NCBI GenBank assembly: GCA_023129115.1
Contig: JAGMCR010000002.1
Span: forward strand, 64,001-128,000
Origin: Candidatus Iainarchaeum sp.
GTDB taxonomy: Archaea; B1Sed10-29; WALL01
Direction: 5' to 3'
Length of the DNA stretch: 64,000 nt
The position numbers were made by a program, and so were the translations under genes. The notes below the pieces were generated by a model, which searched no databases, was not told the origin of the DNA, and saw nothing but the letters and a program-made list of their open reading frames with translations. Positions 3,721 through 54,509 of the stretch are shown piece after piece (the stretch's first letter is position 1; the number at the start of each line of letters is the position of its first letter).

Positions 3721-5229
3721 TTAGGGGCAGGTCCCCGACTGCGGCACCGTGCACTTGGCAGACGTGTACGTGTTCGATGAGCCCATTTGCGTGCCAGTGC
3801 AGTCAAAGTCCCACGAGTCCCACGCGCCACTGCTGCAGACCCTATTGTTGTTCAGCGTATTCGGCGGGCCACCGATAAAGATGCCGTACCAGTTGCTCTG
3901 CAGTACGTTGTCACTGTACGTGTTGCCGCCGGCGCGGTCCTCCACGCCCATTTGGTTGTGGTCTATGTTGTTGAGGCGCAGTGTCCCACCACTACTCCCC
4001 GCTCCAATCACGACGCCGGCGTTCCCGGAGTTCATGATGTCATTGTCGTCCAGCCGGAAATTTGGCACGCTTTCCAGCCGGATGCCATAAATATTATGCA
4101 TCGTGAACGAGTTGTGCATGAACTGTGGGCCCACTGCACCCGTCACGTAAGCACCGATTTGGTTGTTCGCGAAATTGCTGTCCTCCACCCGGGCATTGTT
4201 CCCCTGGATGTACACGCCGTAGTTGAACGACGTAACCACGCAATTCTTTATCCGGGCATTGGCGGCGCCACCCGTCACATATATCCCATTCCCCCCGCCA
4301 GAGCCACTCAGCTGCTTGTTGTTGCAGTTCAGCGTCGCGCCGCTGGACCCGCCCCCAAACCTAACGCCGTCCCCCGCAGTGCACGCCAGGTTGCTCGAAA
4401 GCGTGTAGTACCCGCCAGTTGTTATCTCGTACCCACACTCGCCAATAAGCAAGTGGCACATCCCACTGATTTCGACACCACACTCCGAATCGTCGCAGTC
4501 CGTGTCGCCGTCGCAGTCATTGTCCTTCCCGTCGAAGCACGTTTCTCCCGCCCCCATGCCCTCCGCAGCGCCGGGGTTGATTGCTGGGTCCGTGTCGTCG
4601 CAGTCCACGTCGCTCGTGTATCCATCGTCGTCGTTGTCGACGGGCACTTCGCACGCCGGGTGCGTGCTGCAGTCTTCTGTGTCTGCGCAGTCGATTTTGC
4701 CGTCGCAGTCATTGTCCTTTTCGTCCGTGCATACTTCTGTCGCGCCGGGGTGCACTGCTGAGTCACTGTCGTCGCAGTCTTTCTGCGGGTAAGTGCATTC
4801 ACCAGAGGCCGGGTCGCCGTAGCCGTCCCCGTCATTGTCACTGCACTCCTCTGGCTCCATTTCGCCGCTGACGCCCTCGACATAGTAGCTGCTCCCCCCT
4901 ATGTAGACGTCGTGCTTTTCGCCGCTCGCGTCAGTAAGCGAGCCCACGCGCTTGGCAGTGCCGGGAATGCTGTCCAGGCTCAATACGTGGCTGTCCCCTC
5001 CCTTTACCAGCTCGGCCGGCAGCGAGCCAGGGTCGTCGGCACTGAAGGGCGCGGAGTAAGACACGAGCTCCACCCCGTTCGTGGCGAACGTGTACTTGTC
5101 TTCTTCAACAACAGCCGCCGTCTTCGGCGCAGCCATTAGGGTGTTCGCAACAACCACGACGACTACGGCAATCGCGAGAATAGCCGCCAGTATTAGTAAA
5201 TATTCGAGAGAACCCTGTGCCTTTTTCAT
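3721..5229 (-). CDS. class III signal peptide surface protein with Asp/Cys repeats and beta-helix
   Basis: KKAQGSLEYLL prepilin motif; DCDD...PGA.E.C.D.KDNDCDG repeats; parallel beta-helix C-terminus. Confidence 0.85.
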   Translation of the reverse strand: MKKAQGSLEYLLILAAILAIAVVVVVVANTLMAAPKTAAVVEEDKYTFATNGVELVSYSAPFSADDPGSLPAELVKGGDSHVLSLDSIPGTAKRVGSLTDASGEKHDVYIGGSSYYVEGVSGEMEPEECSDNDGDGYGDPASGECTYPQKDCDDSDSAVHPGATEVCTDEKDNDCDGKIDCADTEDCSTHPACEVPVDNDDDGYTSDVDCDDTDPAINPGAAEGMGAGETCFDGKDNDCDGDTDCDDSECGVEISGMCHLLIGECGYEITTGGYYTLSSNLACTAGDGVRFGGGSSGATLNCNNKQLSGSGGGNGIYVTGGAANARIKNCVVTSFNYGVYIQGNNARVEDSNFANNQIGAYVTGAVGPQFMHNSFTMHNIYGIRLESVPNFRLDDNDIMNSGNAGVVIGAGSSGGTLRLNNIDHNQMGVEDRAGGNTYSDNVLQSNWYGIFIGGPPNTLNNNRVCSSGAWDSWDFDCTGTQMGSSNTYTSAKCTVPQSGTCP

Positions 5230-5292
5230 GCTTGCCACCCTAGGTTATCACTACTGAAAATAACTATATAACCCTTGGGGGTGGGTTAGGGC

Positions 5293-8200
5293 TCAGGCCC
5301 AGCACGCTTCTATGGGGCAGCACGCGTCGTCGATGCACGGCATCCACTTCCCGCACGCCGCAGCCCCGCCTATTGGGTCGTAGCACTGCGTCATGTCAAG
5401 GCCCTGGCACTGGCTGCCCCACGAGCAGGAACACTCCTCGAGCATATACCAGCAGCCCCCTATCGGCATGCACGTGGGATTGGCACAAGTCTCGGTGTTC
5501 ACCGTGCAGTCCACGAACCCCGGCTCAAGGCACGAGTCCGCGTCAAAGTCCCCGCACGCACTGTAACCAGTTTTGGTAGGGTTGCAGTACCTTGGGTCGT
5601 TAAGCGTGCACTCGTCACTGCAGTCTTCCACGCATTGGCCGTTCAGGCATTTCTCGCCCGCCCGGCATGTTGCTCCTATCGCCCACTCATAGCAGCCGTC
5701 GTCATTGTAGTCGCCGCACACCGTAGTTACGGTTTGGCTGGCACAGCCTCTCTCGCCCACTGAGCACTCGTCCTGGCAAGGCTCCTCCTTGCAGCTTCCG
5801 CCGCAGTGGTCGTATCCACAGCCCGTGCTTATGGTGTCGTAGCACTCGAGGCTGGGGTCCGCGTTACAGGCGCTGGCCATATTGCCGAATAGGGCAGCAC
5901 ATGTAGCCCCTTGCAGGCACATCGTGACAGGTCCACTGGTAGTATCATACTTGTAGTATGCAATCGGTATATTGGGATAATAGTCCCTCGACTCACTGCA
6001 TGTGATGCATCCAGGGTCATAGTCGCAGTCGCACCAGCCAGTCCCGCAGCCGCCGGTTGTGGAGTCATAACATTCTGTCCCGACCCAGCAGTCCCCGGCT
6101 TCCATGATTATGTCGCAAGCCGTGTTACCGCACTTCCACGGCTCTCCGTAGTCAGACGTCAGCCACGCCGGCGTCCCCGTTTGCTTCAGGCACGCCTCAC
6201 ACTGCGACGTACATTTTGATTGGACACACGTGTAGCCCGGGTCACAGTCAGCATCACTGTCGCACCCTATGCCTGTGCAGTAGTCCTCGTCGCACCCGGT
6301 GGCATTGTCGTAGCATGTCCAGTGCAGCATTGGCCCGCCCCCGGGCGGGAACTCCCAGCACGCCGCGTCCTCTTTGCAGCTCCTGATTTCCCCACTCGCG
6401 TCACAGATGAAGCCCAGCCCGCTGTCGACGTACACGCCACTCTTGCCGTACACACAGCTCGTGCACGCGTCTGGGTAAATGCACTCGCCCGAGGAGCACA
6501 CTTGGCCCATCCCGCACGCCGTTTGCGTGCCGCCCCAGTCCGTGCAGCCGTCACTGTCGCTGTCGGCGCACACTACATAGCTGTCGCCGACGCACTTCTT
6601 CGTGTTCAGCGTGCACGCGTCCTCGCATGGCGTCGCCTGGTACACGCACTCGCCGTCTATGCACTTGTAATTCTCGCCGCACACGCTCAGCTGTGCCCAC
6701 TCCTTGCAGCCGTCCTCGTCAATGTCCATGCAGAGGTTCAGGTGCGTGAGGTTCACGCACTTGTTGGCAGTGCACTCGTCCTCGCACGGGACACAGTACC
6801 CCGCATCGCAGTCCTTCTTACTCTCCACACAGTTCTCTGCCAGAGTGCCGCAGCACGTTATCGCCAGGCCGCCGGAGCACACCCTCGCGTCCTTGGCCTT
6901 CCCGTCGCACTCCTTGTAGAAGTTCTTGCACACAGACTCGCACTCCGCGTGGCAGATGCCGTCGCCCTTCGTGCAGTCGGTCTGGCACGCCGTGGAGGAC
7001 ACGCACGCTCCGTCCACGCAAGTCTCGCCGCTCCCACAGAAAGTTGTGTCCCCCCACTCATAGCACCCGTCGTCATTGTAGTCGGCGCACACGGAGTAGC
7101 CAGTGGCCTCGGCCTCGCACCTCTTCGCGCCGTTGGTGCACTCGCTCGTGCACTCTTCCACGCACGCGCCGCCCTCGCACACTTCTCCTTCCCCGCAGTA
7201 AACAGCGGGCCCCCACTCGTAGCAAATGTCTTCGTCGTAGTCGCCGCACACATAGTATGCATTTGTATCGGGAACGCATTCCTTCGCGCCTTTCGGAGTG
7301 CACTGGTCGCTGCAGTCATCTGCGACGCACACGCCGCCGCTGCAGTCCTTTCCGGTGCCGCAGTCGGTCTCGCCGCCCCACTCAAGGCAGTCGTCCTCGT
7401 CGTAGTCGCCGCACACCTCGTACGCCGTGAAGCCGCTCGTGCACCGCTTGCTGCCCTCCGGGGAGCAGTCGTTGATGCAGCACGGGCCACAATCGTCCTC
7501 GCAGCTCTCGCAGGTCTCGAAGCCATTGCACATGCCGTCCCCGCAGTAGTCCGTGACGCACGCCCCGCAGTCCGCCACGCATGAGTCGCAGTCCTCTCCG
7601 CCCTCGGTGTCGCACACCCCGTCGCCGCAGTGCTCTTCCCCGCACTCGCCGCAGTCCTCCGGGCACGTGCTGCAGTACTCTTCTGCCGCCGCGCTGCACA
7701 CTCCGTTGCCACAGAACTCTCCAGGGCAGTCGCCGCAGTCCTCCGGGCACGTGGTGCAGTCCTCTTCGTCGCCGCACTCCCCGTCGCCGCAGTGCTCCAC
7801 CGCGCACGGCCCGCAGTCCTTGGCGCAAATCTCGCAGTCCTCGTCGTCGCCGCACACGTGGTTGCCGCAGAATTCTTCGTCGGCCTCTCCGCAGTCCCCG
7901 GGGCAGCTCTCCTTGTCCTCTCCAGTGTTGCACGTGCCGTCGCCGCACACGGGCTTCTTGTCTATGTGGAACTTTCTGGTCCTGCCCCCACCGCCTCCTC
8001 CGGCGGGCGGGAAGGAGTGGTAGACCTTGTAGGTGTCCCCGCTCGCGTCATGGATTTCGCCGACTTCTTCGGCGTCGGAGGGCGGCGCCGAAACGTCAAA
8101 AAAGTAGTCTTGCCCGCCTATCTCGAGCTTTGTTGGTGCCGTGCCCATGGGGTCCCTTGGGTTGTACGGCTCGTCGTACCCAATTACGTTGATGCCCTTG

Positions 8201-8349
8201 AGGGCGAGGGCAGTGATGTCTGCCTTGATTACTGCCTCTTCTGTTGGCGCACCCATCAATGAGTTCAGCACCAAAACAATTACTACCCCGATTGCCAGGA
8301 TAGCGGCGAGAATCATAAGGTATTCAAGAGAGCCTTGCCCACGCTTCAT
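5293..8349 (-). CDS. class III signal peptide, very Cys-rich repeat surface protein
   Basis: KRGQGSLEYLM motif; CGDGxC...CxxCPxDCG and CGDYxxDxCxEW repeats. Confidence 0.85.
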   Translation of the reverse strand: MKRGQGSLEYLMILAAILAIGVVIVLVLNSLMGAPTEEAVIKADITALALKGINVIGYDEPYNPRDPMGTAPTKLEIGGQDYFFDVSAPPSDAEEVGEIHDASGDTYKVYHSFPPAGGGGGGRTRKFHIDKKPVCGDGTCNTGEDKESCPGDCGEADEEFCGNHVCGDDEDCEICAKDCGPCAVEHCGDGECGDEEDCTTCPEDCGDCPGEFCGNGVCSAAAEEYCSTCPEDCGECGEEHCGDGVCDTEGGEDCDSCVADCGACVTDYCGDGMCNGFETCESCEDDCGPCCINDCSPEGSKRCTSGFTAYEVCGDYDEDDCLEWGGETDCGTGKDCSGGVCVADDCSDQCTPKGAKECVPDTNAYYVCGDYDEDICYEWGPAVYCGEGEVCEGGACVEECTSECTNGAKRCEAEATGYSVCADYNDDGCYEWGDTTFCGSGETCVDGACVSSTACQTDCTKGDGICHAECESVCKNFYKECDGKAKDARVCSGGLAITCCGTLAENCVESKKDCDAGYCVPCEDECTANKCVNLTHLNLCMDIDEDGCKEWAQLSVCGENYKCIDGECVYQATPCEDACTLNTKKCVGDSYVVCADSDSDGCTDWGGTQTACGMGQVCSSGECIYPDACTSCVYGKSGVYVDSGLGFICDASGEIRSCKEDAACWEFPPGGGPMLHWTCYDNATGCDEDYCTGIGCDSDADCDPGYTCVQSKCTSQCEACLKQTGTPAWLTSDYGEPWKCGNTACDIIMEAGDCWVGTECYDSTTGGCGTGWCDCDYDPGCITCSESRDYYPNIPIAYYKYDTTSGPVTMCLQGATCAALFGNMASACNADPSLECYDTISTGCGYDHCGGSCKEEPCQDECSVGERGCASQTVTTVCGDYNDDGCYEWAIGATCRAGEKCLNGQCVEDCSDECTLNDPRYCNPTKTGYSACGDFDADSCLEPGFVDCTVNTETCANPTCMPIGGCWYMLEECSCSWGSQCQGLDMTQCYDPIGGAAACGKWMPCIDDACCPIEACWA

Positions 8350-8396
8350 AAAACAACACCGTCCCCTTATACCAGTCATTAGGAATATATAAGGAT

Positions 8397-9140
8397 ATGG
8401 CGGCAATGATTATATTCTTTCCCGCAAATAACAATGGCGTGCCAAGAGTCGAGCAGCGCGGCAGGGAGCTATGGGTATCCATCCCAGAGGACGTAGCCAA
8501 AGCCCTCTCGGTCAATGAAGGGGACGCCCTGTCCTTTGAGCTCTTGGACAACGAATTAGCCGGAGTCCGCAAGGCCCACGCCGTTGCCGACGACGAGCTC
8601 TCGGTCCTCAAAAAATTGAACGAGGTCAAGTTCGCGCAGCGCACCAAGGACAAGGTCCGCTCAATCCTCTCCGACCCCGAGCAAAAGGCACTCGGCAAGC
8701 TCGTGAAGAAGGGCGCTGTCCAGTTCTACGAGGGCGGCAAGTACAAGGACAACGGCGTTTACTCCATTTCCCGCGACTACTACTCGTTCATTTCCAGCCA
8801 GCCAAAGAAGGCCACCAGCCCGCTGGGCCAGCAAAAATACCTGGTGACCCAGTCGCTTGACCAGGCCAGGGACATTCTCTCCAAACTCAAAAACGAGGTC
8901 AAGAGCGGCGGCGTAGTGAGCGTGCGCGGATTCGACAAAAAAGTCTACATCACCACGCGCGACGCCGTTGACACCGTGGGCAGCAAGATTGTTTCTGCCT
9001 TGGGTGCCCGGGAAAAACCTTTGGCGGAAATCGCGTCGGCGTGCGGCGAGGAAGAGGGGCTTGTGCGGACGGTGCTCGAAATCCTGCGCGAGTCGGGCGA
9101 AGTAATTGAGAAGCGCGAGGCGGTGTACGCGCTTGCCTAG
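8397..9140 (+). CDS. hypothetical protein (AbrB-like N-terminus, wHTH-like C-terminus)
   Basis: VSIPEDVAKALSVNEGD; true start may be GTG 8439. Confidence 0.65.
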   Translation: MAAMIIFFPANNNGVPRVEQRGRELWVSIPEDVAKALSVNEGDALSFELLDNELAGVRKAHAVADDELSVLKKLNEVKFAQRTKDKVRSILSDPEQKALGKLVKKGAVQFYEGGKYKDNGVYSISRDYYSFISSQPKKATSPLGQQKYLVTQSLDQARDILSKLKNEVKSGGVVSVRGFDKKVYITTRDAVDTVGSKIVSALGAREKPLAEIASACGEEEGLVRTVLEILRESGEVIEKREAVYALA

Positions 9141-9785: not shown

Positions 9786-10298
9786 ATGGCTATGCCCAAA
9801 ACACCCGAGGAAAAGCTTGGTGGGATAAACCACCACGAGTTCAAGCATTTTGCGGACGAGATTGTCCGCCCCAAGGCACCACTCGAGCAAAAGCTGCTCT
9901 CGTTGGCAATGCACGTCCAGAAAAAAATGCGGTACGACAACAAAAGCATTGAAGTGCCGTTGATTTCCGCGTACGGCCACTGGGGCGTGGGCGACTGCTT
10001 CCAGCAGGCCGGGGCACTCGTCGGCCTGCTCCGCTCGCAAGGAATAACCGCCGAGCTCACGGAAAACCCAAAAAGCGGGCACGCCAGCGTTGGAGTCCCG
10101 CACGAGAGCGGCAACGTCACAATCAACTACTACAAGGACAACGAAATCGGCATCCGCACCCCAGAGCTGTCGTGGAGGAGGACCAAGCACGGCAACGTAA
10201 CCGTCAGGAAGCGGGGAGAAACAAAAGAAATCCTTTCTGTCGAGAGCAGCCACCCACTCGACCAATTACTAAAAAAATTCTTCGGGGCGAAACAGTGA
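9786..10298 (+). CDS. transglutaminase-like protein
   Basis: GVGDCFQQAGALVGLLRSQGI and GHA motifs. Confidence 0.7.
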   Translation: MAMPKTPEEKLGGINHHEFKHFADEIVRPKAPLEQKLLSLAMHVQKKMRYDNKSIEVPLISAYGHWGVGDCFQQAGALVGLLRSQGITAELTENPKSGHASVGVPHESGNVTINYYKDNEIGIRTPELSWRRTKHGNVTVRKRGETKEILSVESSHPLDQLLKKFFGAKQ

Positions 10299-10871: not shown

Positions 10872-10944
10872 GCCTCGGTAGCTCAGCCGGTAGAGCGGCA
10901 GTCTCGTAAACTGCAGGTCGGGGGTTCAATTCCCTCCCGAGGCT
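10872..10944 (+). tRNA. tRNA-Thr(CGT); anchor of the cassette array
   Basis: Full cloverleaf: acceptor GCCTCGG/CCGAGGC, D-stem GCTC/GAGC, anticodon stem GCAGT/ACTGC with loop CTCGTAA, TTCAATT T-loop. Confidence 0.97.
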
Positions 10945-11060
10945 CTGACCCTACGGTAGTAGAGCCTGCACCATAAAATTGTTGATGATTGCCTATAACG
11001 CTTTCGTTGCAGCCCTAACTCCTTGAATTTCCTAGGAAATCCGCGGAAACTGGAGGACGC

Positions 11061-14286: not shown

Positions 14287-14359
14287 TTACTGCGTCAAGG
14301 AGCCCCTGCTCAATTCCGCACCAGTCTATAAATAGTCCTTTGAGCAGAGCCTCGGAGGC

Positions 14360-15529
14360 ATGAGGACTGACCCTTACAACACCGGCACGAAGCTAGTGAA
14401 TTGCCTTGAGCGGGTTAGGCAATCGCTTGACCTATGTAAAGCCAACAAGCGGCTGATTCTTGAGTTCCACGCCGAGGCCGTTGCCCGTGGCTTGTCGGAA
14501 AAGCGGTGCCTTAAGTACGTGAGTACTCTCCGCAACCTCGGAACCCAACTTGGAAAGCCCTTTAACAAGGCGGACAAGCACGACATCATTCGCTTGCTCT
14601 CTTGGCTTGAGTCAACCGCGTACAAGGAGTGGACGAAGCACGACTACAAAGTCATTCTGAAATCGTTTTACAAGTGGCTGAACGGTGGAGAAGAGTATCC
14701 AAAGGTTGTTTCGTGGGTAAAAACAGGGATGAAGAACGGCAACCACATGCTGCCCGAGGAATTGCTGACCGAGGAAGACGTGCGTGCTTTAGTTGAAGCG
14801 TGTACGAACCCGCGCGACAAAGCTTTTGTCCTCACGTTGTACGAGAGTGGCTGCCGAATAAGCGAGCTGCTGACGTTGCAGGTAAAGAGCGTGAGGTTTG
14901 ACGAGCACGGCTCAATCTTGCGAGTGACTGGGAAGACCGGTGACAGGCGCGTGAGGGTGATTTCCGCGGCTCCGGCAATCGCGTTGTGGCTCGACAACCA
15001 CCCCACAAGGAAAGGGCACTTGTTTTGCTCCTTGGATGGGACGGGCATCAACTACTCGACCGCTAACGTGCTGTTAAGGAGGCTTGCTAAGAAGGCAGGC
15101 ATTACGAAGCGTGTTAATCCGCACGGTTTCCGCCACGCCCGGGCCACGTCGCTCGCGAACAAGCTCACAGAAGCCCAAATGAAGGAGTTCTTTGGTTGGG
15201 CTCAAAGTAGCGAGATGGCGGCTGTGTACGTCCACTTGTTGGGGCGGGACGTGGACGATGCCCTGCTAAGCATTTACGGCGTGAAGCCACCCGAGGACGC
15301 TCGCAAGGAGCGTTTCGTGCCTAGGGCTTGTCCCAGGTGCAAGGAGACTAATTCTCCTGCTAGTAAATACTGTTGCAGGTGTGGCAGTGCGCTCGACCTC
15401 GCAACAGCGCTAGAGGCTGATGACAAGCACAAGGAAGCCGATGCATTGATGAACGAGCTCATCAAAGACGACAGGATAAAAGCGCTTCTATTGGAGCGGT
15501 TGGTTGCCATCCAAGCAGAGAATCATTAA
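14360..15529 (+). CDS. tyrosine recombinase/integrase with C-terminal zinc ribbon
   Basis: ESGCRISE (R), GKTG (K), HGFRH (HxxR), FGW, AVYVH (Y); CPRC...CCRC. Confidence 0.95.
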   Translation: MRTDPYNTGTKLVNCLERVRQSLDLCKANKRLILEFHAEAVARGLSEKRCLKYVSTLRNLGTQLGKPFNKADKHDIIRLLSWLESTAYKEWTKHDYKVILKSFYKWLNGGEEYPKVVSWVKTGMKNGNHMLPEELLTEEDVRALVEACTNPRDKAFVLTLYESGCRISELLTLQVKSVRFDEHGSILRVTGKTGDRRVRVISAAPAIALWLDNHPTRKGHLFCSLDGTGINYSTANVLLRRLAKKAGITKRVNPHGFRHARATSLANKLTEAQMKEFFGWAQSSEMAAVYVHLLGRDVDDALLSIYGVKPPEDARKERFVPRACPRCKETNSPASKYCCRCGSALDLATALEADDKHKEADALMNELIKDDRIKALLLERLVAIQAENH

Positions 15530-20322: not shown

Positions 20323-20495
20323 GCCGTGGGCTAACCTTAAAAATGGTTGATGAGTGTAGTTACGCAGTATACACCGCGGGATGGTATCCATGATAGACAG
20401 GTCATTTCCTAGGAAGTTCCGCGGAAATGAGGTGTGTGAGGGGCAAAAAGCGGTGCAGGCTCTATAGCCGTACGAGCTGTTCCCTCCCGAGGCTC
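20323..20495 (+). repeat. ~170 bp duplicate of 13380-13552, including att copy 5 (20480-20495)
   Basis: Near-identical on direct comparison. Confidence 0.95.
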
Positions 20496-20661
20496 AGCGT
20501 CCTGGGGGGCGCAGCCCCCCACGAAGCCCATGACGTTGACACAAGTCAACGTCCAGTCCACGGGAAGAGTCCCCTCAGTAATACTGTACTAGCTGCTGCC
20601 GGGCGGCCTTGCGCCGCCCTCGTCTAACGTGCCGCCTGAGTTTCAGGCGCTCCCGAGGCTC
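20496..20661 (+). mobile_element. gene-free hairpin mini-cassette C1 with att copy 6 (20650-20661)
   Basis: AGCGTCCTGGGGGGCGCAGCCCCCC ... CTAACGTGCCGCCTGAGTTTCAGGCG CTCCCGAGGCTC. Confidence 0.75.
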
Positions 20662-20843
20662 AGCGTCCTGGGGGGCGCAGCCCCCCACTACCCCGGGAAG
20701 CGCCCCCCCAGGTGAGTGGGTAAGAGCTCGCTTCCGCTCGCGGTTTTTGTCTCTGGGAATCGCAGATTCCCAAGCCTAACGTGCTGTACCGTGAATCCCA
20801 ACGGATTTGCGGTTGTCCTGAGTTTCAGGCGCTCCCGAGGCTC
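20662..20843 (+). mobile_element. gene-free hairpin mini-cassette C2 with att copy 7 (20832-20843)
   Basis: Same head and tail as C1, different middle. Confidence 0.75.
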
Positions 20844-27681: not shown

Positions 27682-27695
27682 CCCTCCCGGGGCTC
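27682..27695 (+). repeat. att copy 11 (left arm B, C head downstream)
   Basis: CCCTCCCGGGGCTC. Confidence 0.9.
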
Positions 27696-27776
27696 AGCGT
27701 CCTGGGGGGCGCAGCCCCCCCACTGGGCGGTTCGGCACGCGCGGGGTTTATTAACCTTCTTTTCGTTGGCTGTGCA

Positions 27777-28607
27777 ATGAAGCGCGTTGCCCTGCCCATA
27801 CTGCTGCTCTTGCTTGTTGGCTGCATTGGCACGCCTTCTCCACCAGCCGGCCAGTGCTCTGGCCCCACTGTCTCAATCGCGACGTTCAACATACAAGTCT
27901 TCGGGCAAGCAAAAATGGGCGACCCGGAAGCCGTGGACTCGCTCGTGGGCATAGCCACACGGTTTGACATCGTCGCCATCCAAGAGGTCCGCGACGCAAG
28001 CGAGACCACTGTCCCGCGCTTCGTCAGCGAAATCAACTCACGCAACCACTCCTACGCGTACGTAATAAGCGAGCGGCTCGGCTCCACGTCGTCAAAAGAG
28101 CAGTACGCCTTTGTCTACAACACAGAAACAATCTCGTTCGAAAACTTTTCGTACCTCGTCAACGACACCGTGTTCGAGCGCCCGCCGTTCGTCGCAAAGT
28201 TCAGGGCAGGAGAGTTTGATTTTTTCCTCGTGAACACGCACGTGAAGCCGGAGAAGGGGCGCACCGCCAGCGAGATAAAAGCGCTTGCCGGCGCGGTCAC
28301 TGAAGACGAGGACTACATAATCCTGGGCGACTTCAATGCCGACTGCTCTTACCTCGACGAAAAAACGCTTTCCTCCCTCTTGCCCGGGCTGGACATAATC
28401 GTTTCCAACGAAGACGATACCACAGTGGGCGCGTCCGACTGCACGTACGACAGGATAGCCATCACGCCACGAACGCGTGAGGACTACTCAAGCTACGGAG
28501 TGTACTTGTTCGACAAAGAGCTTGGGCTGGACAGCACGCAAGCAAAAAGCGTGTCAGACCATTACCCCGTGTACGCAGAGTTTTACATTTCGTGCGACAC
28601 CGATTGA
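27777..28607 (+). CDS. DNase I-like EEP nuclease, lipoprotein
   Basis: ATFNIQ, AIQE, GDFNADC, YDRI, SDHYPV; LVGC lipobox. Confidence 0.92.
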   Translation: MKRVALPILLLLLVGCIGTPSPPAGQCSGPTVSIATFNIQVFGQAKMGDPEAVDSLVGIATRFDIVAIQEVRDASETTVPRFVSEINSRNHSYAYVISERLGSTSSKEQYAFVYNTETISFENFSYLVNDTVFERPPFVAKFRAGEFDFFLVNTHVKPEKGRTASEIKALAGAVTEDEDYIILGDFNADCSYLDEKTLSSLLPGLDIIVSNEDDTTVGASDCTYDRIAITPRTREDYSSYGVYLFDKELGLDSTQAKSVSDHYPVYAEFYISCDTD

Positions 28608-28623
28608 TGGGCTCCAAGAAGTG

Positions 28624-28854
28624 AATCCCTCCCAAGGCTCCATCTCAGCGTCCTTAGGGGGAGCGCAGCTCCCCCTGGCCCAGACGAACAACAACCGAAC
28701 ATCCTGTGGGGGATGTCCGGTATCCTGCGGGATGTACGTCATACCCTGGGAAGCCTCACCCCCTCAGTAATCCTGTACTAATCTGTCTCTTGGGGCCTTG
28801 TGCCCCAAAGCCTAACGTGCCAGCTGAGTTTCAGCTGAATCCCTCCCGAGGCTC
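28624..28854 (+). mobile_element. gene-free mini-cassette C3 between att copies 12 (28624-28642) and 13 (28838-28854)
   Basis: AATCCCTCCCAAGGCTCCA ... GGGGGAGCGCAGCTCCCCC ... CTAACGTGCCAGCTGAGTTTCAGCTG AATCCCTCCCGAGGCTC. Confidence 0.78.
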
Positions 28855-37372: not shown

Positions 37373-37416
37373 TAACTCGGGGGTTATCCTCTAATCCACC
37401 TACCCGTCTGAGCTTT

Positions 37417-37538
37417 ATTCCGCACCAGTCTATAAATAGTCCTTTGAGCAGAGCCTCGGGGGCATGAGGACCGACCCTTACAATACCGGTACGAAGCTAG
37501 TGAATTGCCTTGAGCGGGTTAGGGGGTGTAGAGCCAAC
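37417..37538 (+). pseudogene. 5' remnant of the integrase with its promoter
   Basis: Near-identical to the integrase upstream region and first 20 codons (MRTDPYNTGTKLVNCLERVR, ATG 37464). Confidence 0.9.
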
Positions 37539-40108: not shown

Positions 40109-40173
40109 CCTTATCATCCAGTGCTGGATTCCGCACCAAACTATTTATAGAACTTCGAGTCATCATTTATGGA

Positions 40174-49822: not shown

Positions 49823-50488
49823 TTGGCAGATAAAGCAGCAGTATTCATAGATTAAGGCTACTTAACGAGGGTGCTTGGCCACTTTGGGTTACAATCTTTT
49901 GCTAGGGAGCCCAAAACCAATCGCTTTGTTTTCGAGAATAAAGTTGATTACGCGAAACTGTGTGACAAAATGTGCGGCTTGGAAGGGGCTAAGCGTTTTA
50001 GGACTTACGTTTACGATGCTGACCCTTACCAGAACAATCCCCCGACGCAGGATGACCGGGATCAATTGAGCGAGAAGCAAAGGTTTTTCAATTGGCTGGA
50101 GGGCTTGCCGAGTTTTACTGTGCGCAAGGGCAAGTGCTTGAAGCGAGAGTTCAAGCAATGCCATGGTTATAAGGTCGGGCATTTTTTGACTCCTTGCTGG
50201 CACATAACACAGAAGGGCGTGGACGTGAAGTTCTCGGTTGACCTGGTTTCTTTGGCTTGGGACAAGAGGATAGACAAGGCCATTTTGGTTACGGGGGACA
50301 GTGACTTTATTCCGGCAATTGAGAACGCAAAGGACGCCAACATGAAGGCAATCATTTACTTTTTGCGGCGTGGCTCCACAGGCATAAACCAAGGCCTGTA
50401 CTACTTGGTTGATGAGCGGCATGAATTTACCCGTGATTTCTTCAGCGATTGCTTAATTGGCCAAAGCACTTGGAAAAAGAATAAATAG
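49823..50488 (+). pseudogene. NYN domain protein with premature TAA at 49853
   Basis: MADKAAVFID*GYL in frame with QKGVDV and GDSDF motifs. Confidence 0.75.
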
Positions 50489-50516
50489 TAAAGAATACAA
50501 ACTCTTTCTCCACAGT

Positions 50517-50634
50517 GCAGGGGTACCAAAGCGGCCAAATGGGATGGACTCAAGCGGTAGATGGAAAATCCGCCCGTCTCTCGGAGATATCCATTGGCTT
50601 AGTGCCTTCGAGAGTTCGAATCTCTCCCCCTGCA
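50517..50634 (+). tRNA. tRNA-Leu(CAA) with ~34 nt intron (50555-50588)
   Basis: GCAGGGG/CCCCTGC acceptor, ATGGA/TCCAT anticodon stem split at 37/38, long variable arm, GAGAG TTCGAAT CTCTC. Confidence 0.92.
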
Positions 50635-50801
50635 CTCAGCCCCTTGGGGGGCGCAGCCCCCCACTGAGCTGGCGTGCATCCCCCCAGGTGAGTGGGTAAG
50701 GGCTCGCTTGCGCTCGCGGTTTTTGTCTCTGGGAATCGCTAGATTCCCAAGCCTAACGTGCCGCCTTAGTTTAAGGCGTTATAATCCCTTCCCCTGCACT
50801 C
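50635..50801 (+). mobile_element. mini-cassette C4 ending in a tRNA-Leu 3' repeat (50783-50801)
   Basis: Homologous to C2; AATCCCTTCCCCTGCACTC versus tRNA AATCTCTCCCCCTGCACTC. Confidence 0.78.
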
Positions 50802-50872
50802 TACTCTTGAGGGTGAAATCCCACGGCTTTAACCGAAAGTATTATATATCATATGATTATATGATATACCAT

Positions 50873-51418
50873 ATGTTGAAGCAGTGGGAAAAGTTCAGGG
50901 GATGGAAAATCCTGGAATACTTTTTGGAGAGCCCGACATCGCAGATATACATAAACAAGTTGTCCCGACAGCTTGGGGTAAGCCCCCAAACAGCAAACAC
51001 CTACCTCGAGATGTACGCAAATGATGGAATACTAAAGAAGAAAAAGGCCGCAAATGCCTCGTTCTATTCGCTAGATAATTCCCTACCCCGTGTCAAGAAG
51101 CTGAAACAATTTTACTCCCTTGCCCTACTAAACGAAGTCAAGTTCGTTGAGAAAACATTGAAAGAAAACCCTGAAACAAAGTCAATAATTCTTTACGGCA
51201 GCCACGTTACTGGGGAATACGATGAAAAAAGCGATTTGGATATTCTTATTATTTCTCCCAACAAGAAGAAGCCGATGAAGGCAATCAGGTCGCTGAAAAA
51301 GGATGTGACACTAGGCGTTTATTCACTTGCCGAATGGCGAAAGGCCAGCAAGGAATTCAAGGAATCGGTCGCGAAAAATCATGTTGTGCTTTACGGCACG
51401 GGACTAGTGATGAAATGA
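50873..51418 (+). CDS. HTH plus minimal nucleotidyltransferase (MNT antitoxin)
   Basis: LYGS..TGE...SDLDIL. Confidence 0.88.
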   Translation: MLKQWEKFRGWKILEYFLESPTSQIYINKLSRQLGVSPQTANTYLEMYANDGILKKKKAANASFYSLDNSLPRVKKLKQFYSLALLNEVKFVEKTLKENPETKSIILYGSHVTGEYDEKSDLDILIISPNKKKPMKAIRSLKKDVTLGVYSLAEWRKASKEFKESVAKNHVVLYGTGLVMK

Positions 51419-51837
51419 AAACAGCGGCAGAATGCTTTGAAGAAGGAAAGCTAAAGAAAACCAAGAAAGAAGCAGAACAAGTAGAAAATTCAGTAGGGCA
51501 AGCAGAGCACTACCTCGGTCGCGCTGTAGGGGTCCTCAAATCAGAATTCCCCGACGTATCTTTCTTAATGTCGTACAACGCCATGTTCCACGCCGCAAGA
51601 GCGTTGCTTTTCAGGGACGGGGTAAAAGAAAGAAGCCACTACTGCATGGTACAGTACCTTCGCGAAAAGTACCCTGGACAAGAAATCAGCCAATCCATCG
51701 AAATACTTGACAATTACCGTCTTGACCGCCACAAAGTCCAGTACAGCGGAGGCAATTGCACTCACGAAGAAGCAGAGCAAGCAATAAAAGACGCTAAAGA
51801 ATTTATCACACTCGTCAAAAAAGCAGTCCAAAAATAG
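51415..51837 (+). CDS. HEPN domain protein
   Basis: YNAMFHAARALL, SH, RHKVQY; ATGA-coupled to MNT. Confidence 0.88.
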   Translation: MKTAAECFEEGKLKKTKKEAEQVENSVGQAEHYLGRAVGVLKSEFPDVSFLMSYNAMFHAARALLFRDGVKERSHYCMVQYLREKYPGQEISQSIEILDNYRLDRHKVQYSGGNCTHEEAEQAIKDAKEFITLVKKAVQK

Positions 51838-51864
51838 CGCTATCCCCACCAGTTTTAGATAACG

Positions 51865-51968
51865 CTTCCCCCGCACCACAGCCCCTTGGGGGGCACAGCC
51901 CCCCACTGAGCTGGCGTGCATCCCCCAGGTGAGTGGGTAAGGGCTCGCTTGCGCTCGCGGTTTTGTTT
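51865..51968 (+). repeat. tRNA-Leu-like 3' end plus truncated mini-cassette C5
   Basis: CTTCCCCCGCACCA then ~85 nt nearly identical to 50637-50725. Confidence 0.8.
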
Positions 51969-51983
51969 TAGTCCGCCTGCCCC

Positions 51984-54509
51984 CTACTTTTTCCTGGTCC
52001 AGTAAAACAGCGCCGCCGCGCCAATGACGACTACCACTCCCAGCAGCCACAGCGGCAGCCCCGCCCCCTCTGCCGGTGGCACGATTGCCGCTGCCTCGGG
52101 CTTCAGTGTCGGTTCCGGAGTCGGCTCCACCGTTGGCTCTGGCGTTGAAACCGGCGCCGGCGGCGTTGCCAGAGGCACTTCCGCGTAGCCTTGTGTGAAC
52201 AAGACCGGCGCGGTCACTTCACTCCTGACATTGTTCCGGTTCACGTAACTCTCCGTCGTGAAGCGAACAACTTTCTCCGTGCCCGCAGCGAACTCGCCAA
52301 ACACAATTGTGAACACGGGGTCCGAGTTTGTGACTACAACCGTGGCCCCGCCCGCGTCAACCGAAATGCTCGAAGCGCTCGAGGCGAACGACTTGGGTAT
52401 GTCGATTACAACAATCTCGCCCTCCAGGCCCTCCTCGCCGGTGTAATCAATCACCAGGGTGAGCTCGGACTCACTCCCACTCACGTGGTCAACCTCTATC
52501 GTGGCAGTAAAGTGCTGTGACACTTGCCCAGACAACGCTGCAATCCCCTCGAAATCCTCCCTACTCACGCCCGCGTCCTCCAGAGCGCTCTGGACATTTT
52601 CATCGGTCTGCATCAATTCAAGCAACTCTTCCGCCGTCGCGTCAAACGAGAACTCGGTCTCGTAGCCGTACGACGGTGCAGGCCCTGCCGATGGGGTGTC
52701 AGAAGACCCGCGTGTGGGAGTGCTCTTCGAGGGCGCCGGGGCAGGCGCCGCCGGTGGGGGAGACCCAAACACGCCGTAGCCAGAGAAGTGCGTCGAGTTC
52801 GCCCACACGTAGTTCGCAGTGGTGTTCACCCCGCCGTTCGGTGGGTCGAACGTCTCCCACGTGTCCGAAGTCGCGTTGTAGTACTCAATCGCCAGCGAGC
52901 TCTCCTGCAGGCCGGCGGCAGTGACTTCCGCGTCCGTGTAGTAAATCTTGATTATCACCCAAGACATGTTCCCGGCCTCGCCAGTCGTGTTGAACTCAAC
53001 CCATGTCCCCAGCTTCGTCAGTGAATACCCCGAGACACCGCTCGGCACGTCGTCGTACGTCTTGATGGTCAAGGTCGCGTTATAGCCATTGGTGGAATGC
53101 ACTTCCGTCGAGAAGCTCGTGGTGTTCACTGTCTGGTTGCCGCCAGCCGGGATGCCCAGGGTATCCTGCAGGTAGCCCGTCTCGTCGCCCGTAAAGTTGA
53201 CTTCTTCCCCACCAATCGTCACGGTGCAGCTCGTCGCAGTCATGCTCCCGCCGAGCGTCGATACCCAGCCGTCCCCAATCGCAATGTTGTTGTTCCTGCA
53301 GACAATGTCGTCGGTTATCCTCCAGTACACGCTCTTTTCCATGCCGCCCTCGTACAAGCCGTACTTCCCGTTGTTCTCGAAGTTGCCGTTGTACATGTCA
53401 ACAGTGCTGGAAATCAGGTAAAGGCCAGTTACCGCCCTCCCCTGGTTGTCCGTGAAGTCACTGTCCCGCAGGATGAGGCTCGTGCTCACGATGCGCATTC
53501 CCTCCCCGTTGCCGTAGAACCCGCTGTCCTTCACCTCGGCCTCTCCCGAGTTGCCGACAGTGTCCATGTACACGCCGTAAATGGTGTTGTTCCTGAAGTC
53601 GTTGTTGTTTATCAGCAAGTCATCCGTGTCAACCAGGTAGAGCCCAATCTCGTTCCAGTTGACGTCGTTCCCCCTGAAGACGGCATCTTCAATGTCATTT
53701 CCGTACACGCCATAATCTGTGTTGCCGCTGATGTTGTTGTTCCTTATCGTGGCGTTGTAGCACCCCCTCCTGCTTGTAGTCATGTATATGCCATAGCCCG
53801 AGCCGTCAGTGATGTTGTTGTTTTTTATTGTCACGTGGTCAGACTCAATCATGTAAACCAGGTATTGGCTGCCGCCGTTGTTGTCAATGTGGTTCCCGTC
53901 CAGCAGGGTGCTGTCGCTGCCGTCCTGCATATTGACGGCGCAGCGTGTGTTGTCGTGGAGGTACACCCCGGTTATGGTGTTGCCCGTGGAGTTGCCCTCC
54001 AGCAAAACGCCTGCATGGCCCAAACCATTAATCCGGTTGTTGTACATGATTTTCCCGCCGCCCACTGTGTTGCCACTAGAGTTTGTCATCCTAATGCCTG
54101 ATTGAGTGTTGTTCGTGATGTTGTTGTCTTCCATAGTGTTGTCGTCCACATTGGACAACTGGATACCGGTCGCATATTCTGATATACAGCAATTCTTTAC
54201 TGTGACGTTGTCCGCCATCACCGTGATGCCGGTGTTCGCGTCTCCGCCCACGATTCCATAGCCGTCACAGTCAAGCACGACGTTCGCTGCGGAAACAATG
54301 AGCCCGTTGTCGCAGTTGGTCAGGTTGTCAGACGCGTTGAAGACCCTGCTTTCATTAAGGTCGATGGCCCCTGCCCCGCAGTCGCAGGGAATGTCCCCGC
54401 CGCAGTTCGTGGGGACCCACGCGCTCGCGCTGGCCACAAGCAACAGCAAAAAAACCACGGCCCCCCCAATTGTATTGCAATAACCATTATACTTCATAGT
54501 GTTCACCAA
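51984..54509 (-). CDS. secreted beta-helix (NosD/pectin lyase-like) surface protein with C-terminal TM anchor
   Basis: N.I..N...GI repeats, HFSGYG, Pro-rich linker, TM plus RKK. Confidence 0.85.
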   Translation of the reverse strand: MVNTMKYNGYCNTIGGAVVFLLLLVASASAWVPTNCGGDIPCDCGAGAIDLNESRVFNASDNLTNCDNGLIVSAANVVLDCDGYGIVGGDANTGITVMADNVTVKNCCISEYATGIQLSNVDDNTMEDNNITNNTQSGIRMTNSSGNTVGGGKIMYNNRINGLGHAGVLLEGNSTGNTITGVYLHDNTRCAVNMQDGSDSTLLDGNHIDNNGGSQYLVYMIESDHVTIKNNNITDGSGYGIYMTTSRRGCYNATIRNNNISGNTDYGVYGNDIEDAVFRGNDVNWNEIGLYLVDTDDLLINNNDFRNNTIYGVYMDTVGNSGEAEVKDSGFYGNGEGMRIVSTSLILRDSDFTDNQGRAVTGLYLISSTVDMYNGNFENNGKYGLYEGGMEKSVYWRITDDIVCRNNNIAIGDGWVSTLGGSMTATSCTVTIGGEEVNFTGDETGYLQDTLGIPAGGNQTVNTTSFSTEVHSTNGYNATLTIKTYDDVPSGVSGYSLTKLGTWVEFNTTGEAGNMSWVIIKIYYTDAEVTAAGLQESSLAIEYYNATSDTWETFDPPNGGVNTTANYVWANSTHFSGYGVFGSPPPAAPAPAPSKSTPTRGSSDTPSAGPAPSYGYETEFSFDATAEELLELMQTDENVQSALEDAGVSREDFEGIAALSGQVSQHFTATIEVDHVSGSESELTLVIDYTGEEGLEGEIVVIDIPKSFASSASSISVDAGGATVVVTNSDPVFTIVFGEFAAGTEKVVRFTTESYVNRNNVRSEVTAPVLFTQGYAEVPLATPPAPVSTPEPTVEPTPEPTLKPEAAAIVPPAEGAGLPLWLLGVVVVIGAAALFYWTRKK

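Follow-up and report, generated by a model that had tools for sequence, protein, structure and literature searches.

A probable small tandem array of integrase-less units at a tRNA-Leu(CAA) gene of a DPANN-type archaeon, with a gene-free element that also occurs at a tRNA-Thr gene

Tandem insertion at tRNA or transfer-messenger RNA (tmRNA) genes by units that lack an integrase and keep both attachment (att) sites is established in the accessible text of three studies (PMC5704250, PMC3146451, 10.1101/2020.12.28.424599), and tandem integration is also known in archaea according to the accessible text of a review (PMC8371274). Tandems were few in the Islander collection, where the accessible text counts only 4 of at least three members among 3919 islands (PMC4383910). 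Here we describe a locus at positions 50517-51990 of a 64,000-nt stretch of Candidatus Iainarchaeum sp. (assembly GCA_023129115.1, contig JAGMCR010000002.1, positions 64,001 to 128,000, forward strand), which is the whole stretch of DNA that was analysed and is called the window below. The locus begins with a tRNA-Leu(CAA) gene and holds two copies of a short gene-free element, named C-Z for its head (C) and its tail (Z), which occurs in the same window in an array at a tRNA-Thr(CGT) gene. DPANN archaea have tiny genomes, and the routes by which they gain genes are little known.

We favour, with a probability of about 0.58, the reading that 50517-51990 is a tandem accretion array of three integrase-less cassettes (E1, E2 and E3), that the C-Z family has exchanged its core between tRNA genes, and that the Leu copies were moved in trans. 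A tyrosine recombinase would have made the insertions, each by site-specific recombination at the tRNA-Leu(CAA) 3' end. The first to enter would have been E3, a C element since internally deleted, followed by E2 with its winged helix-turn-helix (wHTH)-MNT and HEPN genes and lastly by E1, the intact C-Z element, which lies nearest to the tRNA. C-Z itself would be a miniature non-autonomous integrative cassette that comprises little beyond a hairpin-built attachment region, with a near-identical body and with a core and core-proximal ends fitted to the local tRNA, in a Thr or a Leu version. The element would carry its core, and this core would have been exchanged (modular re-targeting); the Leu copies may have been moved by a second integrase of the zinc-ribbon family, from a clade associated with ...CCTGCA ends and encoded outside the window. 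We favour this reading because a layout of core, head, cargo, tail and core recurs at ~14 copies of the tRNA-Thr end between 10.9 and 40.1 kb, because all of the C heads lie just past a tRNA-like end, and because relatives too show arrays with gene-free minis (loci L042 and L076).

The tRNA-Leu(CAA) gene is the anchor of the mini-array, on its attL side. It was missed by ARAGORN with default settings and by a whole-window Rfam search, and was recovered by ARAGORN when introns were allowed, with an intron of 34 nt at 50555-50588. Rfam in E-value mode, applied to 50400-52100, matched it to RF00005 (42.4 bits, E=3.2e-07, gathering score 29); apart from the tRNA, this region gave no match above chance level. 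The locus is made up as follows.

50517-50635, plus strand: tRNA-Leu(CAA), full cloverleaf, intact (ARAGORN with introns; Rfam RF00005)
50614-50637, plus strand: Leu core, the final 21 nt of tRNA-Leu and ~3 nt past it, repeated downstream
50636-50777, plus strand: E1, gene-free C-Z mini-cassette of 140-150 nt, directly 3' of tRNA-Leu
50646-50662: E1, head hairpin
50663-50680: E1, post-hairpin segment with partial complementarity to the core
50681-50760: E1, conserved middle, with a T5 tract at 50720-50724
50731-50748: E1, inner hairpin
50750-50762: E1, invariant AGCCTAACGTGCC
50762-50778: E1, tail hairpin
50778-50801, plus strand: displaced copy of the tRNA-Leu 3' end, same strand as the tRNA, bounding E1
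50802-51863, plus strand: E2, cargo cassette of 1.06 kb with its own AT-rich upstream region
50873-51418, plus strand: E2 gene for a wHTH-MNT protein, 181 aa, with GSx11DLD
51415-51837, plus strand: E2 gene for a HEPN protein, 140 aa, with a 4-nt stop/start overlap (ATGA) with the MNT gene
51864-51876, plus strand: weak Leu-like end (10/13), resembling the acceptor 3' strand plus CCA
51877-51964, plus strand: E3, C element truncated past the T-tract
51965-51990, plus strand: possible collapsed tail, degenerate core and old chromosomal flank, judged from alignments

The displaced end at 50778-50801 matches 50614-50637 at 20 of 24 positions, and its four mismatches all fall in the 5' part, as expected if that part is the attP of the element. 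A sequence-only reading of this DNA had noticed a 17/19 copy of the Leu 3' end at 50783-50801 (compared with 50619-50637). This copy is real, is part of the longer 20/24 match, and is the sole other 19-mer with at least 15 of 19 matches on either strand of the whole window. The same reading had described a C element immediately after tRNA-Leu and similar to 20662-20780, then an MNT-HEPN pair, a further Leu-like end at 51865 and a truncated C copy, and every item of this description holds. E1 is 87% identical to 20659-20763 (105 nt, ungapped) and 96% identical to 20704-20784 (82 nt). The MNT and HEPN genes are recognized by Pfam (PF01909, 6.5e-10; PF18765, 3.1e-10; PF05168, 6e-18), with the MNT protein scoring 38 bits against the NCBIfam MntA model, under its cut-off of 60. 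By its domains the E2 cargo is an adjacent MNT nucleotidyltransferase/HEPN pair, a predicted toxin-antitoxin system of type VII-like composition. E3 (51879-51964) is 97.7% identical to E1 (50637-50723) over 87 nt, suggesting that members of one family inserted at tRNA-Leu more than once. The further Leu-like end is present and has a C head next to it, but it is weak on its own: it matches 10/13 at 51864-51876 and 12/21 over 51858-51878, ~35 sites in the window match the 13-mer equally well, and only the C head that comes next, in the same register, makes it noteworthy. Past E3, CCTGCCCCCTACT in 51965-51990 resembles CCTGCACTCTACT at the E1/E2 junction, and a convergent 841-aa beta-helix open reading frame (ORF) has its stop at 51984.

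We read the Leu locus as a tandem array that is small but of the same kind as one of ~29 kb at the tRNA-Thr gene (window 10872-40160). The final 11-16 nt of tRNA-Thr(CGT) (10872-10945) recur ~14 times up to 40.1 kb, and these 3'-end copies part units with unrelated cargo: an isochorismatase; the integrase with a subtilase; a TFIIB-like gene; PadR with an amine oxidase, a CrtC-like protein and UbiA; AAA_14/DUF4143; Exo_endo_phos; a peptidase S9; AbiEi/AbiEii; and a GMP-synthase C-domain protein. Three heads (A, B and C) follow the cores and three tails (X, Y and Z) precede them, usually paired as A-X, B-Y and C-Z. The members of the C family in this array are the following.

20661-20830, plus strand: Thr-flanked homologue of E1, a C-Z mini between two GCTCCCGAGGCT cores, with a 30-nt extra tail hairpin
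20495-20648, plus strand: second Thr-flanked C-Z mini, with the same head and tail and a different middle
28640-28841, plus strand: third Thr-flanked C-Z mini, in which the head hairpin is a variant (GGGGGAGCGCAGCTCCCCC) and the tail hairpin covaries
27695-28627, plus strand: cassette in which a C head (26 nt identical) is fused to an Exo_endo_phos gene at 27777-28607

The hairpin pattern of the C head occurs five times in the window versus 0 expected (none of 100 shuffles had any), and a sixth, variant copy lies at 28650. All six heads (6/6) lie ~9-20 nt past a tRNA-Thr-like or tRNA-Leu-like end, with none elsewhere in the 64 kb, and the junctions read ...CCCCTGCAC/TC and ...CCCGAGGCT/C, where the slash marks the junction. 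C is thus flanked by Thr ends at one locus and by Leu ends at the other, as the sequence-only reading had stated.

These positions could also be explained if C were no mobile unit at all and served as a structured flank module, such as a terminator, an insulator, a small RNA, or part of a larger att site as its long arm. The ~90-nt direct repeats formed by E1 and E3 would then stem from a single insertion or duplication involving the MNT-HEPN genes, and the Thr copies from local duplication or gene conversion. Such a role would suit the hairpins kept by covariation, the T5 tract after a GC-rich stretch, the confinement of every C copy to the arrays, the bracketing of E2 by E1 and E3 as 90% direct repeats of 60 nt, and the fusion of one C head to cargo at 27695. 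However, the three minis of the Thr array are bounded by cores on both sides and carry no cargo, and most Thr cassettes have no C. Inspection by eye showed no AT-rich archaeal promoter within C, and no Rfam family was found in it. We regard the flank module as unlikely.

The Thr and Leu versions are mosaics. Between 20661-20830 and E1, the head hairpin is identical (20/20) and the middle nearly so (76/79), whereas the 9 nt before and the 15 nt after the head hairpin match at only 12 of 24 positions (Fisher p=5e-7 for middle against flanks). The Thr and Leu tails differ, yet both keep the invariant AGCCTAACGTGCC and a 7-bp hairpin with a GTT loop. Three of the seven pairs in this tail hairpin have changed on both sides in a compensatory manner, all 21 cells are paired (21/21), and 19 of 500 shuffles did equally well. 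Both Thr tail copies share the non-tRNA bases GGCGCT beside the core, where the tRNA has TCCCT, and the Leu tail runs into the 24-nt tRNA-Leu-like block. Since the mismatches are found only in the 5' part of the repeat, the crossover would be placed in the last ~11 nt. The accessible text of a study of Dehalococcoides ssrA placed the crossover in the same manner, from repeat-adjacent sequence that did not align with the gene (PMC3146451). The differing termini, the deviations of the displaced Leu end and the shared GGCGCT together indicate that each version carries its own tRNA-like core. From the alignments, the C element is not core-free and would exist in two versions re-fitted to the host tRNA.

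The sequence-only reading had offered as one possibility that targeting recognizes general tRNA features. Put more fully, the integrase at 14360-15529 or another enzyme would read generic features of the T-arm and acceptor, independent of the core, and the flanking ends would derive from the target. One integrase only is visible in 64 kb, three unrelated head/tail families of the Thr array share one core, so that the arms seem not to dictate the site, and CTCCC is common to the Thr and Leu ends. This possibility is nevertheless improbable, and we do not favour it: the head flanks at 12/24 contrast with the middle at 76/79, the element termini and tails differ between the two loci, the displaced Leu end has element-specific deviations, the same GGCGCT lies beside the core in both Thr tails, and integrases of this family group by the type of tRNA end.

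The last point rests on the integrase and its relatives.

14360-15529, plus strand: tyrosine integrase of 389 aa with a C-terminal zinc ribbon (PF00589), the sole intact one in the window

This gene starts 76 nt after a copy of the tRNA-Thr end and is the only one of 61 ORFs scanned with Pfam to contain PF00589 (1/61). By tblastn, the window contains only 14360-15529 and a stump of 29 aa at 37464-37538; the surrounding 37412-37538 is a 95% copy of 14308-14419, the integrase leader and first 29 codons, and the stump is what remains of a second integrase in the Thr array. No PF00589 or tblastn match lies between 40 and 64 kb, and no integrase lies within 35 kb of the Leu locus, so the remark that no integrase is nearby is correct. 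With no integrase in them, the Leu units would be non-autonomous, resembling cis-mobilizable elements (CIMEs).

The integrase residues R166, K192, H255, R258, W280 and Y290, which we take to be the catalytic R..K..HxxR..[H/W]..Y residues, are invariant in an alignment of 26 sequences, and a C-terminal Cys4 motif is conserved in the family. The family is very large (2062 proteins with E<=1e-3 among 8000 scored), and the window integrase is closest to proteins named from the genomes of Diapherotrites (84% identity) and Micrarchaeota (~50%). Its best NCBIfam model is XerA_Arch (131 bits, under the cut-off of 220); against the two models for integron integrases it reaches 46.8 bits where 265 is required and 37.4 bits where 435 is required. 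When representative genomes were scanned for this family, 78 loci were obtained, mostly from Micrarchaeota and 1.17 Mb in total. In 27 of the 78, same-strand tRNA ends lie 56-350 nt before the integrase, and ARAGORN names these tRNAs Thr, Leu, Ser, Glu, Pro, Asn and Gly. For this reason the statement that classical elements carry one fixed attP, which is right for a single element, fails for families.

We built a tree of the integrases from these 27 loci and the window; the 51 loci left out have no tRNA within 500 nt upstream. Nine of the 10 Leu-adjacent and three of the six Ser-adjacent integrases fall in one 14-row clade with a Shimodaira-Hasegawa-like approximate likelihood ratio test (SH-aLRT) value of 100, and the window integrase falls outside it. 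The integrases of this clade adjoin ...CCTGCA ends (Leu/Ser). Overall, the target labels change 13 times on the tree versus 16.5 times when shuffled, and 2 of 200 shuffles were as low. Because the Leu/Ser-end clade excludes the Thr integrase, the Leu site was probably serviced by a second integrase encoded outside the window, and on this phylogeny it was probably a member of the Leu/Ser clade, and not the Thr integrase, that inserted the Leu cassettes. The other possibility raised by the sequence-only reading, namely that core swapping lets the element use different integrases, fits the clade better than recognition of general tRNA features does.

With its small size, its lack of genes, its several copies and its flanking direct repeats, C-Z might also be taken for a transposon similar to transposable elements of the miniature inverted-repeat kind (MITEs) that enters tRNA 3' ends, the flanks being target-site duplications. 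E1, which has no ORF, does not, however, contain any inverted pair linking its two ends, that is, terminal inverted repeats are absent, and the termini of the family vary by locus. The supposed duplication would measure 11 nt beside tRNA-Thr but 24 nt beside tRNA-Leu, and the Pfam scan found no transposase in the window. A transposon of this type is highly improbable.

The hairpins suggest a further explanation, in which the hairpin-rich ends are folded single-stranded recombination sites resembling attC, the core pairs with an 'anti-core' borne by the element, and re-coding takes place by paired changes. Pairing between the post-hairpin segment and the core region of the same element is stronger than in shuffles, in both the Thr version (-23.2 kcal/mol, p=0.005) and the Leu version (-14.4 kcal/mol, p=0.015). 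Inverted copies of the core give a combined Fisher p=0.003 over 12 head families, a value driven by two sites: 14347-14358 and an inverted Leu-core copy in E2 at 50892-50905 (12/14, p=0.017). In addition, compensatory changes preserve the hairpins of this DNA, which is probably not transcribed. Other tests were negative. The C-Leu head is at chance in gapped local alignment (p=0.47), 18 window junctions scanned without gaps averaged 5.6 versus 4.8±1.05 for shuffled sequences, own-core complementarity was no better than permuted pairings among 27 relatives and the window (p=0.15), and the integrase is not IntI. We find this explanation very doubtful. The broader proposal, that C-Z elements are portable folded recombination modules of ~150 nt which provide DPANN archaea with tRNA-anchored, integron-like gene capture and are re-coded by core/anti-core changes, is quite doubtful as well.

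Several results weigh against the accretion array with exchanged cores that we favour. An exact pattern of the C head had no occurrence in 185,579 representative genomes, among which the source genome is not included. Six C pieces, compared by blastn-short with the 78 related loci, gave only matches of 13-15 nt at chance level (best E=0.049), and the C element had no match in phage or plasmid collections. As C was found nowhere else, every inference on C as a family depends on the six copies of this one window. For a tyrosine recombinase, 150 nt is a very small circle, and the minis may move only with their neighbours. E2 and E3 are less secure as cassettes than E1, as they are bounded by weak ends (10/13 and ~10/13). 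Neither Pfam nor tblastn detected an integrase of the Leu clade in the window. Finally, the naming of intron-bearing tRNAs by ARAGORN is unreliable, because two pairs of loci (L002/L003, Ser/Thr; L040/L048, Pro/Thr) have near-identical integrases and tRNA 3' ends under different ARAGORN names.

Arrays with gene-free units are also found among the relatives. Locus L042 has four CCCTCCCTGCA cores, with a gene-free unit of 78 nt and two hairpins (8925-9002) between two of them. In L047 (from 5247 onward), a head or unit is related to that of L042, with one hairpin differing by compensatory changes. L076 has a gene-free unit of 55 nt (9787-9841) between two cores, and L012 has four cores. Directly before tRNA-Leu-like cores, four metagenome-assembled genomes of Micrarchaeota type carry a tail TCAGAC(C/T)C(A/T)AGCATCATCCTTG.GTT; the conserved sites are 7690-7722 and 8881-8913 in L042, 5200-5232 in L047, 4383-4415 in L060, and 2931-2963, 8505-8540 and 12931-12965 in L069. 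The survey was not exhaustive: the k-mer core scan gave mostly chance two-copy matches, and loci with three to four copies were taken further. An all-versus-all blastn of the related loci (71 short matches inspected) gave no clear case of one short element at two different cores. Two candidate origins of the Z tail were rejected. It is not significantly similar to the variable arm of tRNA-Leu, of which it might be a relic (p=0.35-0.97), or to the Leu-type tail of L042, L047, L060 and L069 (best p=0.108).

Additional motifs were seen around the cores. An inverted Thr core (12/13) lies at 14347-14358, immediately before the integrase start codon, and is a possible integrase-binding or autoregulatory site. 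Head A carries an inverted core pair, AGGCTCT..AGAGCCT. Heads A and B contain a (T/C)GCACCA motif 25-60 nt past the cores and upstream of TATA-like boxes (for example 10966-10972, 14322-14328 and 40134-40140), and this motif is also present at 51870-51878. In L005, L017, L054 and L063, which have different target tRNAs, the integrase leaders contain related AATTnGGCAC motifs. At the Leu locus, an identical 12-mer GATGGAAAATCC is found in the tRNA-Leu intron (50560-50571) and in the first part of the MNT ORF (50901-50912), where it adjoins the inverted Leu core at 50892-50905; about 0.07 exact 12-mer pairs of this type are expected per 1.5 kb, and the pair may be due to chance.

The arrays are flanked by large secreted proteins on the minus strand (3721-8406 and 51984-54509) with Cys-rich repeats or a NosD-like beta-helix and with class III signal peptides. 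Internal DNA repeats of 78-84 nt are present at 7520-7923. In the Pfam scan, the window also encodes Nre and class III signal peptides, which, like the intron-bearing tRNA, mark it as archaeal.

The window suggests that much of the flexible gene content of DPANN archaea sits in tRNA-anchored cassette arrays, and one widespread family of integrases, which have a C-terminal zinc ribbon, appears to feed them. The gene-free minis illustrate what a minimal mobile unit may be, and the Thr and Leu versions of C-Z form a natural experiment on the re-targeting of an attachment site. Should the locus be a product of ordinary accretion, what is gained is a description; should the hairpins be the substrate of recombination, it would join integrons as a second cassette system that depends on structure. 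Such units would escape standard island finders, given that Islander, according to its accessible text, rejects candidates that are below 2 kb or have no integrase (PMC4383910). A limited literature search found no description of gene-free re-targeted units of this kind. In text searches of the accessible parts of two sources, the 2021 review of archaeal tyrosine recombinases (PMC8371274) gave 0 hits for DPANN, 0 for Micrarchaeota and 0 for zinc, and a study that covers integron cassettes of Archaea (10.1101/2022.02.06.479319) gave 0 for DPANN, 0 for Micrarchaeota and 0 for tRNA.

Among described systems, integron cassette arrays, including those of Archaea, share with the window, in the accessible text (10.1101/2022.02.06.479319), mostly promoter-less small cassettes, some of them without an ORF, a structured recombination site for each cassette, and an integrase that acts in trans. 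An integron identity was rejected: the integrase scores far under the IntI cut-offs, the array has a tRNA gene as its anchor in place of attI, and the junctions, judged by eye, are copies of tRNA 3' ends and not GTTRRRY/attC boxes. MITEs, which derive from transposons and are non-autonomous, are, like C-Z, miniature, gene-free and multi-copy, with the enzyme supplied in trans. Unlike MITEs, C-Z has no terminal inverted repeats, and its flanks are att cores in place of target duplications of fixed length. The integrases at tRNA genes described in the accessible Islander text (PMC4383910), which show a sublocation preference, leave, as here, a 3' fragment of the tRNA gene at the far end, with a crossover at the junction of T-stem and acceptor (the 'J' site).

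The tycheposons of Prochlorococcus, as presented in the accessible text (10.1101/2020.12.28.424599), are also cargo elements at few tRNA genes with a partial tRNA copy between neighbours, and their degenerate remnants build islands, as seems to be the case here. They carry recombinase and replication modules, and gene-free minis are not mentioned in that text. We rejected a tycheposon identity for the window, as none of the 61 ORFs has a Pfam domain of a replication module (primase, helicase or polymerase).

The closest likeness is to CIMEs and accretion arrays, such as the ICESt1-type elements of streptococci (PMC5704250) and the ssrA islands of Dehalococcoides (PMC3146451). In the accessible text on these arrays, as at the Leu locus, insertion is repeated at the 3' end of one RNA gene, the units are bounded by a short direct repeat of the gene end, many units lack an integrase and keep both att sites, and conserved bases adjacent to the repeat reveal the crossover point. 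Unlike the arrays described there, the Leu array belongs to a DPANN-type archaeon and has no conjugation or replication genes. The departures from known cases are three: the host group, the gene-free units of 150-200 nt, and the presence of one family at two tRNA genes with its cores exchanged. Tandem arrays at tRNA genes being already known, gene-free re-targeted mini-cassettes are a modest new twist on them.

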